NCBI GenBank assembly: GCA_964358645.1
Contig: CAYHPW010000001.1
Location: 62,264 to 126,263, forward strand
DNA length: 64,000 nucleotides
Reading direction: 5' to 3'
Source of the DNA: an uncultured Bacteriovoracaceae bacterium
Lineage (GTDB): Bacteria; Bdellovibrionota; UBA1018
Within the stretch, counting starts at the first letter, position 1. Every line of letters begins with the position of its first letter. Both the position numbers and the translations under genes were made by a program. This document shows, one piece after another, positions 15,548 through 25,313 of the stretch. Below the pieces are notes generated by a model. That model had not been told where the DNA came from. It ran no database searches and saw only the letters and a list, made by a program, of their open reading frames with translations.

Positions 15548-17026
15548 CTACCATAAAATGAATTTTATTGATTTACCTAACCATTCAAAGATCGGCTGAA
15601 CAAACACCGCAGCTACCACCAGGGGTGCGAGCAAAACATATATAAAAACCCTGCGCCAGCTATCTACAACCAACGCCCGCTCAGAATAAACAGCACCCAA
15701 ACCACCAACCATATTATATATAAGCCTAGACGCTGCAATAACCGAAATAGTCATAGATAATATCGCGACAATTAACAACAATGACCATCCATAACGAAGT
15801 GCTATTTCAAACAATGCAAACTTGCCAAAAAATCCCGGCGTTGGCGGTAATCCGACGATACACATAACAAAAAAAATCAATGCTATTGTTTCTGGGATGG
15901 CGCGTTTTGTTATCAGCTTTAATTTTTCCAAATTGTCTGTTTTTGCTTCATCATAAAATACAGATAAAACATAAAACACGCCCGTTACAGCTATAAGCTC
16001 AACCAAAAGATTAAAAAGTATCGCGGTAATTCCCCTGTCGTCCAAAACAAGCATCCCCATTAAAAGCGCTCCGGTTTGGCTCACAAGAAGATAGCCCATT
16101 AATCTCTTTGCGCTCTGTTGCCTAAAAGCCAATAACGCACCATAAAGCATAGACACACTAGATATGACCGCCAGTATTCGTGGCCACTCAAGTTGGCCCA
16201 AAATCTGCCACTGACCTAAAGTTAACGCTGGCTGAGCAAAAAGGGCCATAATTAGACGCAGGCCAAGGGCTAGAGCAGCGCTCTTAATGCCCACAGAAAG
16301 AAACGAAGACACTGGTGTTGGCGCCCCTTCGGCCACATCGGGCGACCAAAAATGAAACGGAAAAATCCCTAGCGGGAAGCAAATGGCAAATAGTATGAAT
16401 ACGAAGGTCATTAATGTCTCTTTTTGTGATAACCCAGATGACATTAAAGATATGTGAATATCCTGCATGTTTAACTGTCCAGTGCTAGCGAATATCATGG
16501 CTAATCCATAGGCCAAAAAGGCCGCTGCCGTGACATTTCCAATCATAATTTTTATTGCCGCCTCATTCCCGGGTGGATGCCACTTTGAATATCCAGCCAA
16601 GAAATAGCCCGACATAATACTAAGTTGAAGCGCAAGAAATCCTAAAACAACATCGGTAGCCGACGCTGAAACACACATTCCAAGGCATGATGCAACCAAT
16701 AGCACCGTATATTCTGCCCTCATTGTCGGATTAATTTCTTTTGATGTAACTGAAGATATTATCGTTATAGCACCAAGCCCTATAAACAATATCCTAAAAA
16801 AAAATGTCAGCCCATCTATCGCCATGCTGCCGCTAAAAACTCTAGCCGGCCCTTTCATCATTACAATTACACTTTGCAATAGCGCCGTTCCTAAACCAAC
16901 AAGCGCCGTTGCAGACACAAGACGGATTTTTTCGCCGTGATAGGTTATTTCTGCAACTAAAATAAAACATATCGTGAGTGCTAGAAAAATTTCTGGTAAT
17001 ACAAAAATAAAATCTTGTATGCTCAT
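15548..17026 (-). CDS. NuoN-like antiporter subunit of second (11-gene) complex I-like cluster
   Basis: 492-aa membrane protein with motif FHFWSPDVAEGAPTPVSS (compare nuoN FHMWMPDVYEGAPVPV). Confidence 0.75.
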   Translation of the reverse strand: MSIQDFIFVLPEIFLALTICFILVAEITYHGEKIRLVSATALVGLGTALLQSVIVMMKGPARVFSGSMAIDGLTFFFRILFIGLGAITIISSVTSKEINPTMRAEYTVLLVASCLGMCVSASATDVVLGFLALQLSIMSGYFLAGYSKWHPPGNEAAIKIMIGNVTAAAFLAYGLAMIFASTGQLNMQDIHISLMSSGLSQKETLMTFVFILFAICFPLGIFPFHFWSPDVAEGAPTPVSSFLSVGIKSAALALGLRLIMALFAQPALTLGQWQILGQLEWPRILAVISSVSMLYGALLAFRQQSAKRLMGYLLVSQTGALLMGMLVLDDRGITAILFNLLVELIAVTGVFYVLSVFYDEAKTDNLEKLKLITKRAIPETIALIFFVMCIVGLPPTPGFFGKFALFEIALRYGWSLLLIVAILSMTISVIAASRLIYNMVGGLGAVYSERALVVDSWRRVFIYVLLAPLVVAAVFVQPIFEWLGKSIKFILW

Positions 17027-18552
17027 CTTAATGTCGGCAACAATTGTAAACCGCTGATTCTAATAAGTTCAAGCAGTGGGGCCGGATATACACCTAGAAA
17101 TAGAATAATTCCTGCCAATGCTATTAAATATAGCTTTTCAGTATTTTTTAAATCTTTAACATTTTTTGTATTAACACCCTCTTTTCCAAAAAAGATGACC
17201 CTATATACATTTAATATGTAATATGCAGCTATAATTGCACTAAATACCATTAATATAGCGACTACTGGGTGTGATGAATATGTACCAATAACTAGCAGTG
17301 ATTTTCCTATAAATCCGCCAGACCCAGGAAGACCAAGGATAGATATGACAAAAACCGCAACTACAGTTGCAGCTATCGGTGCATTATAAGCCACCCCTCC
17401 TATCGCTGCTTCACCGTTGTTCTTTTGAAAATATATCTGGCCCGTGCGTTCAAATATAAATCCAGAAAACAATCCCACCCCGGCAATACCAAGTCCTTGC
17501 ACTAAAAGATCATATATTGCACCCGTAACACTTGGAGATGTCATAACGCCTATGCCAACTAAAACCACGCCGATTCCGCTAGTACATATATATGCCAATA
17601 GTCGTCTTAAATCTTTTTGGGTGGCCGCACAAACTCCAGCAATAATAAAATTCATCACCCCTATAATGACAATTATATGCGACAACCTCGCGGTGATCTC
17701 TGGAAACAACGTGTAAGCAAAACGAATAAATAAGTACATAGAAACTGGGATTGACACCGAACATACCGCCACAAAAATGGACGCTGGTGCTTGTTCTGAC
17801 ACAGAATTTAACCAGCCATTAAACGGCCACATTGCGGCTCTGATCGCAAATCCAACGCTTATTAGTAAAAAAGCAAAATTTGCGACATAAATAGTCATAC
17901 CAGAAATGCTTACCGTTTTGCCAATCAGCTTCCCACCGCTGAGCTCACCCATTAAAAAGCCGTGTGGATCGGCACTATAATAAATGAGAATTAATGCAAT
18001 AAATAATAATGCATTACTAATGGCTGAAGAAACCATAAACCGAAATGCAGCACTTTCTTTTTCTCTCCCTCCCCATATGCTGATTAAAAAATATAGCGGC
18101 ACACTGCTAAAAGCCCAGAAAAAGAATAAAAGAAACAAATCCTGTGAGAAAACCGCCCCATAAAGCGATGTCTGCAATAAAAGAAAAAGACTGTTTACAC
18201 CATAATTTCCTGTCGACCTGTCCCATTCTTTCCCTATTAAGACTGGAAATATTATTGATATAAGCATAGCGATCGACGCACTTAAACCATCTATTGCTAC
18301 ACTATAACTTATTGAATATGCCTCTATCCATTTGTATGTTTCAATAAATTTTGGTGCCTGTACATCTCCGGTTGTCAGATAAAATAAAGAAAATATTAAC
18401 CATGACAAGCAGGCTCCGCTTGCAAAACTGCTAAATAAAAACATCCACCGTTTAAAATTATTTTTAGGATCTAAACCCCTCGGTATAATTAGCTGAAGAA
18501 TCACGCCTGCTAATGGTAAAAAAATCATTAATGTTACAAGATGCTCTTTCAC
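17023..18552 (-). CDS. NuoM-like antiporter subunit (second cluster)
   Basis: 509-aa membrane protein with degenerate W-P...(E/Q)AP motif (MWPFNGWLNSVSEQAPASIF). Confidence 0.65.
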   Translation of the reverse strand: MKEHLVTLMIFLPLAGVILQLIIPRGLDPKNNFKRWMFLFSSFASGACLSWLIFSLFYLTTGDVQAPKFIETYKWIEAYSISYSVAIDGLSASIAMLISIIFPVLIGKEWDRSTGNYGVNSLFLLLQTSLYGAVFSQDLFLLFFFWAFSSVPLYFLISIWGGREKESAAFRFMVSSAISNALLFIALILIYYSADPHGFLMGELSGGKLIGKTVSISGMTIYVANFAFLLISVGFAIRAAMWPFNGWLNSVSEQAPASIFVAVCSVSIPVSMYLFIRFAYTLFPEITARLSHIIVIIGVMNFIIAGVCAATQKDLRRLLAYICTSGIGVVLVGIGVMTSPSVTGAIYDLLVQGLGIAGVGLFSGFIFERTGQIYFQKNNGEAAIGGVAYNAPIAATVVAVFVISILGLPGSGGFIGKSLLVIGTYSSHPVVAILMVFSAIIAAYYILNVYRVIFFGKEGVNTKNVKDLKNTEKLYLIALAGIILFLGVYPAPLLELIRISGLQLLPTLR

Positions 18553-18564
18553 TAAAACTCCCCA

Positions 18565-23956: not shown

Positions 23957-24488
23957 TGCTAGTCACCTGCTGACAATGACTAATGCCTAAAACTTGTTTT
24001 GGAAAAACATAGTCTTTCCTTAATGGAAACCCGACCCAACCGTGTAGCAAAAGACTTTTTTCTTTTTTATGTAATGTCCCATCCTGAAAAGAAACGCCAA
24101 ACAACTCTTCGATCTCACTCTCAAATGCTATAGCCATTGGCCAGGTTTTAGTTACAGACGGGAAGCTTACAATGCCACCAGAAACATTTATATCTGCAGA
24201 ACCTCTTAATATCAGTGTACTGCCAAATTTCCATGAAGACACCACATAGGTAAAAACTAGCGCTTCTCCGATCTGCATCGCCGATAAATTCTCAAGCCAA
24301 TCCAATGATATTTCATTATCTTGTTTAATAATTTCGGCTACCCTTTGAATGCTTTTTGTTTCTATCCACAAACATACCATCTCAGAACGACCCATTCGTT
24401 GCTTTCTTAAAACGGCACCAGGAACAACTTCATTTAGTTTCGATAGCAATGTCTTTTTGTCCATTTTCCAATCCTGAAATAACTTCAA
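23949..24488 (-). CDS. NuoC-like 30-kDa subunit (second cluster)
   Basis: 179 aa in nuoC position between the NuoB-like and NuoD-like genes. Confidence 0.6.
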   Translation of the reverse strand: MKLFQDWKMDKKTLLSKLNEVVPGAVLRKQRMGRSEMVCLWIETKSIQRVAEIIKQDNEISLDWLENLSAMQIGEALVFTYVVSSWKFGSTLILRGSADINVSGGIVSFPSVTKTWPMAIAFESEIEELFGVSFQDGTLHKKEKSLLLHGWVGFPLRKDYVFPKQVLGISHCQQVTSNV

Positions 24489-24924
24489 TCAGCTTAATCA
24501 ATCCATTCATAATCGCCTCCGGACGAGGAGGGCAGCCTGGAATATAAATATCAATAGGTATTATTTTATCTACGCCGGCAATAACAGAATAGCTGTACTC
24601 AGGTGCAAAAGCACCACCGCAATTAGTACATGATCCTACTGAAATGACCCATTTCGGAAAGGGCATCTCTTCATAAAGCCCTTTCAAATAAGGTGCGATC
24701 TTGTATGAAACTGGCCCAGCTACAAATAATAAATCTGCCTGTTTGGGATCAATTTGTGGAATGCAACCAAATCTTTCTATGTCGTATTTACATCCTAAAA
24801 CGTTCGTTAACTCTTCGGCACAGCAACCATGACAAGCAGCTATATACCATAATGACCTTTTTCTCGCCCAAGTTATGGCGCGCTGAAGCGTTCCTATTCC
24901 CGCTTGGTTTTTCCGTCCTGCCAA
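24430..24924 (-). CDS. NuoB-like subunit (second cluster), N2 ligands conserved
   Basis: 164 aa with CCAEE, GSCTNCGG (GxCxxxGG) and GCPP motifs. Confidence 0.8.
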   Translation of the reverse strand: MAGRKNQAGIGTLQRAITWARKRSLWYIAACHGCCAEELTNVLGCKYDIERFGCIPQIDPKQADLLFVAGPVSYKIAPYLKGLYEEMPFPKWVISVGSCTNCGGAFAPEYSYSVIAGVDKIIPIDIYIPGCPPRPEAIMNGLIKLIEVISGLENGQKDIAIETK

Positions 24925-25313
24925 TCCATATCTCCTTTTTTAAGTGAGTGAATCAAGCCAAGCAGCATAATAATACTGCTTGTTAAAATGGCTATAAGTG
25001 CCGCTAAGGCAACATCATCTTTACTGTTCCTCCTAAAAACAACAACGGAGGGGGCCACGCTAAGAGCGAGACTTACAAATAAAACAGACGTGCTTGCCAC
25101 CAAAAAAAATCTTGTATTAAGTTTTCTGCCAATTGAATCATGTAAAACAACAGATTTAATTTCCCTACGGTGCGGACAATATTCTTTTTTAATAATTAAT
25201 TTTTGACCTATTCTTGAAAAAAAAACCGCGCAAAGCCATAATATTGCCGGCAGCAATAGAGAAGCAATTAATCCTAAAAAAAATAAGTTATAAATACCCA
25301 AGCTATTTGGCAT
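24894..25313 (-). CDS. NuoA-like subunit (second cluster)
   Basis: 139 aa with 3 TM helices. First gene of the cluster, divergent to mfd. Confidence 0.55.
   Translation of the reverse strand: MPNSLGIYNLFFLGLIASLLLPAILWLCAVFFSRIGQKLIIKKEYCPHRREIKSVVLHDSIGRKLNTRFFLVASTSVLFVSLALSVAPSVVVFRRNSKDDVALAALIAILTSSIIMLLGLIHSLKKGDMDWQDGKTKRE

Follow-up and report, generated by a model that had tools for sequence, protein, structure and literature searches.

The reference systems closest to the locus reported here are canonical complex I (NADH-quinone oxidoreductase, NDH-1; Nqo1-15 of Thermus thermophilus, NuoA-N of Escherichia coli) and the 11-subunit NDH-1 ('NUO11'), which includes Chlorobi/Bacteroidetes and cyanobacterial types as well as loci of Calditrichota, Planctomycetota and Ignavibacteria (L051-L084 in our set). 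We analysed a 64,000-nucleotide stretch from an uncultured Bacteriovoracaceae bacterium of the Bdellovibrionota (contig CAYHPW010000001.1, positions 62,264 to 126,263; hereafter the window), in which a canonical 14-gene nuoA-N operon (cluster 1) is preceded by a second cluster of eleven nuo-like genes (cluster 2). Cluster 2 has in common with 11-subunit NDH-1 the eleven subunits, their order, the absence of an N-module (NuoEFG) and a short NuoD, but the quinone-site and pump residues kept there are lost in the cluster-2 family, which moreover always lies head-to-tail with a canonical nuo operon. With canonical complex I it shares the folds of the Q- and P-modules, the ligands of iron-sulfur (Fe-S) clusters N2, N6a and N6b and the layout of NuoL; it differs in having no NuoEFG of its own and in the replacement of quinone ligands, coupling residues and pump residues. 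On the sequence evidence presented below, we favour the reading that cluster 2 encodes a functional complex I paralogue which would not pump in the canonical way and which would be tied to the canonical enzyme.

Other members of the superfamily offer partial parallels. In the 2013 work of Marreiros and colleagues, Ehr complexes, which are not known to have an assigned function, reportedly contain a NuoD-like subunit devoid of both [NiFe] cysteines and quinone residues. NuoD2 likewise lacks both, which is a conceptual likeness; the Ehr clusters are reportedly smaller and of other subunit make-up, whereas cluster 2 has all eleven Nuo subunits and a NuoD2 that still scores as NuoD. Cyanobacterial NDH-1MS/MS' complexes keep plastoquinone reduction and add CupA/CupS, while cluster 2 has no CupA/CupS-like accessory genes. 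Their antiporter-like subunits reportedly set a precedent for repurposing beyond proton pumping (bioRxiv 10.64898/2026.08.03.742399). Syntrophobacter fumaroxidans carries one nuoEFG and the other nuo genes in duplicate (Spero et al. 2015, PMC4453560). As in the window, one N-module gene set stands there beside two Q/P-module sets, so that NuoEFG could be shared; in this comparison, made by description only, loss of catalytic residues is not reported for that organism. In Bdellovibrionota, a second 'nuoAHJKLMN' cluster 37-41% identical to the canonical one has been mentioned without residue analysis (PMC13147790); it may or may not correspond to cluster 2. No description of a tandem degenerate nuo cluster was found in the literature searched, in line with the initial annotation of the window, which had suggested an undescribed variant.

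Gene content of cluster 2

Cluster 2 consists of eleven co-oriented open reading frames (ORFs) on the minus strand, running from 25313 to 15548 in the order A2-B2-C2-D2-H2-I2-J2-K2-L2-M2-N2. Both this arrangement and the 33-bp distance to nuoA-N, reported in the initial annotation, were read again from the sequence:

24894-25313, minus strand: nuoA2, 139 aa, diverged NuoA homologue
24430-24924, minus strand: nuoB2, about 150-164 aa (uncertain TTG start), subunit of cluster N2
23949-24488, minus strand: nuoC2, about 171-179 aa (start uncertain)
22823-23956, minus strand: nuoD2, 377 aa, NuoD of the short type, quinone ligands lost
21780-22826, minus strand: nuoH2, 348 aa, homologue of NuoH, coupling loops degenerate
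21250-21783, minus strand: nuoI2, 177 aa, 2x[4Fe-4S] ferredoxin subunit
20717-21265, minus strand: nuoJ2, 182 aa
20430-20720, minus strand: nuoK2, 96 aa, without both membrane glutamates
18565-20433, minus strand: nuoL2, 622 aa, full-length, extremely diverged NuoL
17023-18552, minus strand: nuoM2, 509 aa
15548-17026, minus strand: nuoN2, 492 aa
15515-15547, minus strand: nuoN2-nuoA1 spacer, 33 bp (nuoN2 stop at 15548, nuoA1 ATG at 15514)
2049-15514, minus strand: canonical nuoA-N operon, 14 genes from A1 (15155-15514) to N1 (2049-3554), with nuoE, nuoF and a short nuoG

Most adjoining genes of cluster 2 overlap by 4-8 bp and the rest are closely spaced, so translational coupling is expected. 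The terminator scan detected no terminator-like site or hairpin in the 33-bp spacer, and the corresponding spacers measure 32-64 bp in other genomes with the same layout. Apart from this terminator-free spacer, the promoter and terminator scan of the window was uninformative, its counts being at the level of shuffled sequence.

No NuoE, NuoF or NuoG gene lies within 15548-25313; these genes are present only in the downstream canonical operon, about 3 kb from cluster 2 and within an apparent 25-gene transcription unit. The absence of the N-module genes, pointed out initially, is therefore real. The conclusion first drawn from it, of an electron donor other than NADH, is unwarranted, since nuoEFG belong to the same apparent transcription unit and the N-module may be shared. 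The proteins of the canonical operon score well with Pfam (NuoH 387 bits, NuoL 290, NuoM 264, NuoN 251) and their NuoE/F/G domains were found. Canonical NuoG (9539-10999, minus strand) has 486 aa; its N-terminal Fe-S domains are present, and the molybdopterin-like domain is reduced to a remnant.

Identity of the eleven proteins

Profile hidden Markov model (HMM) searches, proposed as a check in the initial annotation, placed ten of the eleven proteins in the matching Nuo families of Pfam and NCBIfam, mostly far under the equivalog cut-offs (for instance 327 vs 360 bits for NuoD2 and 115 vs 305 for NuoH2). The only NCBIfam models passed were subfamily models of NuoB (PRK06411, TIGR01957) and NuoM (TIGR01972), and NuoL2 had no match in Pfam or NCBIfam. 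Family profiles were further built from orthologues in other genomes and compared with canonical Nuo profiles by hhalign.

Among the peripheral subunits, NuoB2 scored 188 bits with the NCBIfam NuoB subfamily, over the cut-off, and NuoC2 matched Pfam Complex1_30kDa with an E value of 5.6e-16, the window protein being 25-46% identical to other family members. NuoI2 was recovered by TIGR01971 (NuoI, E 5.5e-20) and carries N- and C-terminal extensions when compared with NuoI1. NuoD2 scored as NuoD with an E value of 1e-97 and aligned in a single stretch with the 366-aa PRK12322 and 372-aa FpoD models. Its AlphaFold2 model (predicted local distance difference test, pLDDT, 86) gave Foldseek TM values of 0.88-0.92 to NuoD/49-kDa chains; NuoD2 is thus predicted to have the NuoD fold.

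The membrane subunits are more diverged. NuoA2 reached 22.2 bits with Pfam Oxidored_q4, just below cut-off, and was assigned to NuoA by hhalign (97.7%, E 1.5e-12). Similarly, hhalign matched NuoH2 to NuoH (100%, E 9.8e-45), NuoK2 to NuoK (98.0%, E 2.4e-13) and NuoJ2 to NuoJ (99.1%, E 5.6e-19), the last also with Pfam Oxidored_q3 at E 2.2e-9. NuoM2 and NuoN2 were recognized directly, by TIGR01972 (298 bits) and Pfam Proton_antipo_M (E 4e-45), respectively.

NuoL2 had initially been described as degenerate and reduced to its C-terminal long-helix region. A word-index homology search, with the single sequence or with a 30-member alignment, returned only the identical protein, and the family was collected from genomic loci instead. 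The resulting profile aligned with NuoL over residues 20-617 against 19-665 (hhalign 98.4%, E 4.5e-15), including the C-terminal QxGDvQWY motif. Hydropathy indicated transmembrane (TM) segments up to about residue 499, then a non-hydrophobic stretch of about 100 aa and a last TM segment at 599-617. Because the profile match covers the whole length, NuoL2 is best taken as a full-length NuoL, predicted from the alignment and the hydropathy to have the usual layout with a lateral helix. The description as degenerate holds for its antiporter key residues, which are absent (see below), and not for its length. A single-sequence AlphaFold2 model of NuoL2 reached a pLDDT of 43.6 and was unusable for fold search.

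The Fe-S ligands are conserved

In NuoB2 the motifs CCAEE, GSCTNCGG and GCPP are present and the four N2 cysteines are retained in 47/47 family members. NuoI2 has both CxxCxxCxxxC motifs, whose eight cysteines are conserved at >=95% across the family. The 12 Fe-S cysteines of the two proteins are therefore all intact, as noted initially, and with them the three [4Fe-4S] binding sites N6a, N6b and N2.

An additional cysteine (CxxCGG) occurs in NuoB2 three residues past the third N2 ligand, in 33/47 family members compared with 9/61 canonical or 11-subunit NuoB sequences. It could change the ligation or the potential of cluster N2.

The quinone site of NuoD2 is replaced

The key residues of the quinone site considered here are the head-group ligands His38 and Tyr87, and Asp139 (T. 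thermophilus numbering), in keeping with the structural and mutagenesis literature. HMMER aligned NuoD2 with T. thermophilus Nqo4 without a gap over the N-terminal 290 residues (E 8e-73). In this alignment Nqo4 His38 falls on Gln25 of NuoD2, Tyr87 on Ser74, Asp139 on Ser126 and His34 on Asp21. BLASTP against the canonical NuoD1 of the window, which retains the His, Tyr and Asp, gave the same substitutions. The changes of His to Gln and of Tyr to Ser, first seen by eye, are therefore not an artefact of alignment.

The residues are replaced at family level too. The consensus of the quinone loops is LPGP / DHLDPE, with mostly Pro, Pro and Ala at the positions of His38, Tyr87 and Asp139, whereas every outgroup NuoD keeps the three residues. 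The window protein departs from this pattern, with Gln and Ser where most members have Pro and Pro, and it lacks His21 and His71 of the family. Cys85 is invariant in the family and Cys323 nearly so.

Such conserved replacements could point to an oxidoreductase with a new, non-quinone acceptor, its pocket rebuilt around the LPGP/LDPE loops, Cys85, Cys323/His324 and the extra NuoB2 cysteine. There is an analogy in MBS, which reduces polysulfide at the site where MBH uses protons. The conservation of the replacements at the old quinone site, where most members have Pro in place of both ligands, the two cysteines of NuoD2, and the kept N2 ligands with an extra Cys beside one of them in 33/47 sequences would all fit. 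However, the Gln and Ser of the window protein and its lack of the family histidines indicate a pocket that is not strictly constrained and make a new active site under tight constraint less likely; no candidate substrate-handling genes lie near cluster 2. We consider this explanation rather unlikely.

Several characterised enzyme types were also compared. NuoD2 has no NiFe cysteine pairs (DRLDSS at the N-terminal position, SSMDLGMSEVDK at the C-terminus), as first reported, and hydrogenase HMMs matched with E values of 0.006 or worse; a group 4 [NiFe] hydrogenase (Ech, Mbh, Hyc/Hyf) was rejected on these grounds. An F420H2 dehydrogenase (Fpo) was rejected as well, the scores being 284 bits against a cut-off of 600 for FpoD and 91 against 475 for FpoH; neither FpoF/FpoO nor any other input-subunit gene was found in or beside cluster 2. 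The match of NuoD2 to MbsL (6u8y_L, E 1e-55) is weaker than that to Nqo4, and the gene content of cluster 2 is Nuo-type and not Mrp-type as in the sulfane-sulfur reductases MBS/MBX. The cysteine reportedly retained in MbsL corresponds to Ser or Pro in the NuoD2 family.

Coupling and proton-path residues are mostly non-titratable

For a residue census, each cluster-2 family was aligned with canonical and 11-subunit sequences and the coupling sites were counted. At each site listed below, conservation reaches 100% among canonical and 11-subunit sequences. The E. coli residue numbers follow the mutagenesis literature.

NuoK TM2 Glu (E36): window Asn; cluster-2 family Gln in 34/38
NuoK TM3 Glu (E72): window Gln; family Gln in 33/38
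NuoM TM5 Glu: window Ala; family Ala/Gly/Ser
NuoM TM7 Lys: window Arg; family Arg in 39/39
NuoM TM8 Lys: window Pro; family Pro in 36/39
NuoM TM12 Glu: window Lys; family mostly His
NuoN TM5 Glu: window Gln; family Gln/Leu
NuoN TM7 Lys: window Pro; family Gln in 29/38
NuoN TM8 Lys: window Lys; family Arg in 31/38
NuoN TM12 Lys: window Lys; family Lys in 31/38
NuoH AEY Glu: window Tyr; family Arg in 41/45
NuoA FDVE Asp and Glu: window Val and Leu; family Ile/Leu
NuoJ TM3 Tyr: window Ser; family Ser in 31/41

For NuoK2, E. coli NuoK E36 aligns on N31 and T. thermophilus Nqo11 E67 on Gln, both membrane glutamate sites being E in 26/26 canonical sequences. Beyond the listed sites, the Glu of the conserved ECG of NuoA2 is also replaced by a hydrophobic residue, and in NuoH2 the Glu residues of ERK and SYE, the KED loop and most acidic positions of the TM5-6 loop are lost or unconserved. 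NuoL2 lacks the TM5 Glu, the TM7 Lys (Gln), the TM8 His (Gln), the TM11 HxxxHxxxK and the TM12 Lys-Asp pair. HMMER alignments to the solved NuoM, NdhB, NuoK, Nqo11 and NdhA chains gave the same substitutions. Surviving basic residues are limited to the NuoN TM8 Lys/Arg, the NuoN TM12 Lys and the NuoM TM7 Arg. Acidic sites are thus neutralised and lysines mostly turned into Gln, Pro or non-titratable Arg, with the replacements themselves conserved. The initial annotation had credited NuoM2 and NuoN2 with antiporter motifs; the Pfam fold is indeed kept, but most catalytic Lys and Glu are lost. The ion pump it had envisaged is unlikely, since nearly every known proton-carrying residue of NuoH, A, J, K, L, M and N is non-titratable across the family.

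These data bear on the simplest alternative, an ordinary alternative 11-subunit NDH-1 of the Chlorobi/Bacteroidetes type, reducing quinone and pumping protons. Gene content and order agree with 11-subunit clusters, Nuo families give the best HMMs, and in public records the proteins are labelled NADH-quinone oxidoreductase subunits (L2 being 'hypothetical'). Yet His38, Tyr87, Asp139 and the full set of pump residues, retained by true 11-subunit relatives, are not kept by the cluster-2 family, and the wide shortfall at most NCBIfam equivalog cut-offs, together with the unmatched L2, speaks in the same direction. We regard an ordinary enzyme as very improbable, and the earlier view that cluster 2 is not a redundant NDH-1 is supported.

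Distribution and selection

Carriers of cluster 2 were collected as one genome per species, through two NuoD2 peptide patterns. About 50 Bdellovibrionota species genomes show mfd followed by B2-C2-D2-H2-I2-J2-K2-L2-M2-N2 in this order, most of them with an A2-matching ORF between mfd and B2. Wherever the carrier contig reaches that far, A1-B1-C1-D1 come next after cluster 2. On the other side, surA, pdxA, pgm and uvrA past mfd are common to the window and the carrier genomes. More distant lineages also show the mfd / cluster 2 / cluster 1 layout. Among the carriers are FG-1 and FG-2 of GTDB class UBA1018, the proposed 'Bdellonasia' (PMC13200544), a paper in which nuo genes are not discussed.

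NuoD2 has >120 homologues at 50-56% identity, and those with informative names come from metagenome-assembled genomes (MAGs) of Bdellovibrionota or Oligoflexia, with the exception of one labelled Methylotenera. NCBI entries identical to the window proteins (MEK73998xx-99xx) carry the MAG label 'Candidatus Poribacteria bacterium'. This label is doubtful given the uvrA-pgm-pdxA-surA-mfd-nuo order and the best homologues, all in Bdellovibrionota MAGs.

Within the same genomes cluster 2 evolves much faster than the canonical copy. Inter-genome identity is 65-85% for cluster-1 proteins and 25-60% for those of cluster 2 (B2 59%, D2 and I2 53%, M2 and N2 45%, H2 36%, J2 33%, L2 27%). The ratio of nonsynonymous to synonymous substitution rates (dN/dS), calculated for the closest pair of loci (L005 vs L006, dS about 0.4), was 0.16 for A2, 0.05 for B2, 0.17 for C2, 0.04 for D2, 0.04 for H2, 0.01 for I2, 0.13 for J2, 0.01 for K2, 0.11 for L2, 0.02 for M2 and 0.05 for N2, similar to the 0.05-0.10 of canonical A1, B1 and C1. 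Cluster 2 is under strong purifying selection.

One could have taken the faster divergence from cluster 1 and the loss of catalytic residues for the signs of a decaying duplicate, with pseudogenes in the making. Instead, about 50 or more genomes carry the ORFs intact and with translational coupling, dN/dS stays at 0.01-0.17 and the substituted residues are themselves conserved, all of which tells against decay. We give this reading almost no weight; pseudogene decay is effectively ruled out by the selection analysis.

The same data can be read as a sign of a non-catalytic structural or regulatory twin, which would not turn over, would keep its Fe-S clusters for folding and would act as a scaffold, assembly or supercomplex partner of canonical complex I. 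Near-total loss of functional-site residues despite strong purifying selection, with conserved replacements, agrees with such a role, as do the deeply conserved adjacency to the canonical operon and the pattern of divergence, in which membrane subunits evolve fastest (L2, J2 and H2) while fold-defining parts persist. The redox subunits B2, I2 and D2 are nonetheless the most conserved (53-59% identity, dN/dS 0.01-0.05). This speaks, as far as conservation can tell, more for electron transfer having been retained than for a pure scaffold, and we consider a purely structural twin somewhat unlikely.

Origin of the cluster

Outside the family, NuoD2 has its closest counterparts (35-37% identity) in the 11-subunit clusters of Calditrichota, Planctomycetota, Ignavibacteria and unclassified MAGs. 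They retain GPQHPSTHG, DRxDY and GLDxGA, and with them His38, Tyr87 and Asp139, as well as the pump residues. The initial annotation had named placement in an already characterised 11-subunit clade with the same substitutions as a refutation of its claim; cluster 2 is not placed in one. NuoD2 shares the short architecture of 11-subunit NuoD, without the insertion of about 25-30 residues found in 14-subunit NuoD.

An exhaustive search of 50%-identity cluster representatives, one sequence per cluster, gave 147 aligned top matches. In a neighbour-joining tree 48/147 group with NuoD2 in one clade, and none of these 48 has both His38 and Tyr87. The midpoint root of the tree is the long branch to the cluster-2 clade, so that the sister group is not fixed by the tree. 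Short-NuoD architecture and percent identity suggest that cluster 2 descends from an 11-subunit NDH-1.

One sub-clade of the NuoD2 family keeps Tyr87 and not His38. Two of its members (L085:8682-18496 and L086:8666-18584) lie in the uvrA-pdxA-surA-mfd / cluster 2 / cluster 1 context, and L086 has a NuoM2 with the TM5 Glu and TM8 Lys and a NuoN2 with the TM5 Glu and TM7 Lys. These partly retained residues indicate that the losses were progressive and mosaic, and suggest that catalytic residues were lost stepwise within Bdellovibrionota. In an unclassified MAG (L078:6933-18948), an 11-gene nuo cluster that is intact and keeps His and Tyr stands about 470 bp before a second nuoA-B-C-D. Such a tandem thus also occurs in non-degenerate form, and the layout may be older than the degeneration.

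Proposed function

In the reading that we favour, the cluster-2 proteins would assemble into an L-shaped, complex-I-like membrane complex holding N6a, N6b and N2. Such a complex would be incapable of canonical quinone reduction at the His/Tyr site and of canonical redox-driven proton pumping, which leads us to propose that it would be a non-energy-conserving or non-catalytic partner of the apparently co-transcribed canonical complex I. If electrons are still moved, they would enter by NuoI2, supplied by a soluble donor of low potential or by the shared downstream NuoEFG, and would leave N2 to an acceptor in the rebuilt pocket.

Several points weigh against this proposal. Quinone could bind at a shallower site independent of His38 and Tyr87. 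Likewise, the surviving basic residues and the Gln residues along the former proton path could leave room for a non-canonical ion or proton path. Strong selection on 11 large genes for a non-pumping role has no obvious rationale given the single-subunit NDH-2. The tie to the canonical complex is drawn only from conserved adjacency, and the carrier census covers genomes recovered through the two NuoD2 peptide patterns.

Sharing of the N-module could by itself account for the locus. NuoEFG would then dock on either Q-module and, with the cluster-2 arm, form a non-pumping NADH dehydrogenase serving as a redox overflow valve. The intact Fe-S chain, the apparent membership of nuoEFG in one 25-gene unit, whose 33-bp spacer is devoid of a terminator, the conserved tandem order of the clusters and the precedent of S. 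fumaroxidans (PMC4453560) are all consistent with such an isozyme. On the other hand, the dismantled quinone site leaves the acceptor in question, two arms would compete for one N-module gene set, and an 11-subunit scaffold is a costly stand-in for NDH-2. Taken as a complete explanation, the shared isozyme seems to us about as doubtful as the structural twin, and the paralogue tied to canonical complex I remains our preferred reading.

Neighbouring genes and other features of the window

Upstream of cluster 2 lies its conserved neighbour:

25314-28915, plus strand: mfd and divergent intergenic region

The longest mfd ORF begins with a TTG at 25214, overlapping nuoA2 by 100 bp. The true start is probably an ATG near 25379 (MHPCTAND...), in which case the divergent promoter region would span about 65 bp.

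Further into the window, dnaN (45483-46589, minus strand) has an AT-rich intergenic stretch (GC about 0.31) upstream at 46590-47131, with another at 44839-45482, near gyrB and gyrA. Eight DnaA-box-like 9-mers with <=1 mismatch to TTATCCACA occur in the AT-rich stretch, and the cumulative GC skew has its minimum near 50-52 kb of the window. The stretch beside dnaN is thus a candidate replication origin; if so, the nuo array would lie about 20-45 kb away and be co-oriented with replication. Genes for the catalytic (560 aa) and B12-binding (137 aa) subunits of methylmalonyl-CoA mutase, followed by an acyl-CoA dehydrogenase gene, lie beside the AT-rich region at 47132-49230 (minus strand). A tRNA gene at 60974-61047 (plus strand) is the sole Rfam match at gathering threshold in the window.

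Significance

The functional residues of complex I have been mapped by site-directed mutagenesis. Most of them are replaced in cluster 2: Glu by Gln, Lys by Gln, Arg or Pro, and His and Tyr by Pro. The locus can be regarded as a natural experiment on what an 11-subunit scaffold does without quinone chemistry and proton pumping, for which lineages with partial losses, such as L086, provide a graded series.

We put forward, more tentatively than the reading favoured above, that a whole complex I has been converted to another use in several Bdellovibrionota classes, its Fe-S wire kept and conserved non-titratable residues built into the quinone site and the proton channels. Possible outcomes of such a conversion are a twin or regulator of the canonical enzyme, a non-electrogenic NADH valve with shared NuoEFG, or a transporter or enzyme whose active site is new. 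If true, this would provide the first natural example known of a 'pump-dead' complex I paralogue maintained by selection.

For the organisms themselves, automatic annotation of these proteins as ordinary Nuo subunits means that reconstructions of Bdellovibrionota, including magnetotactic UBA1018, count a second proton-pumping complex I which probably does not exist. If the cluster-2 complex binds canonical complex I or shares its N-module, it would represent a new mode of regulating respiratory electron entry.

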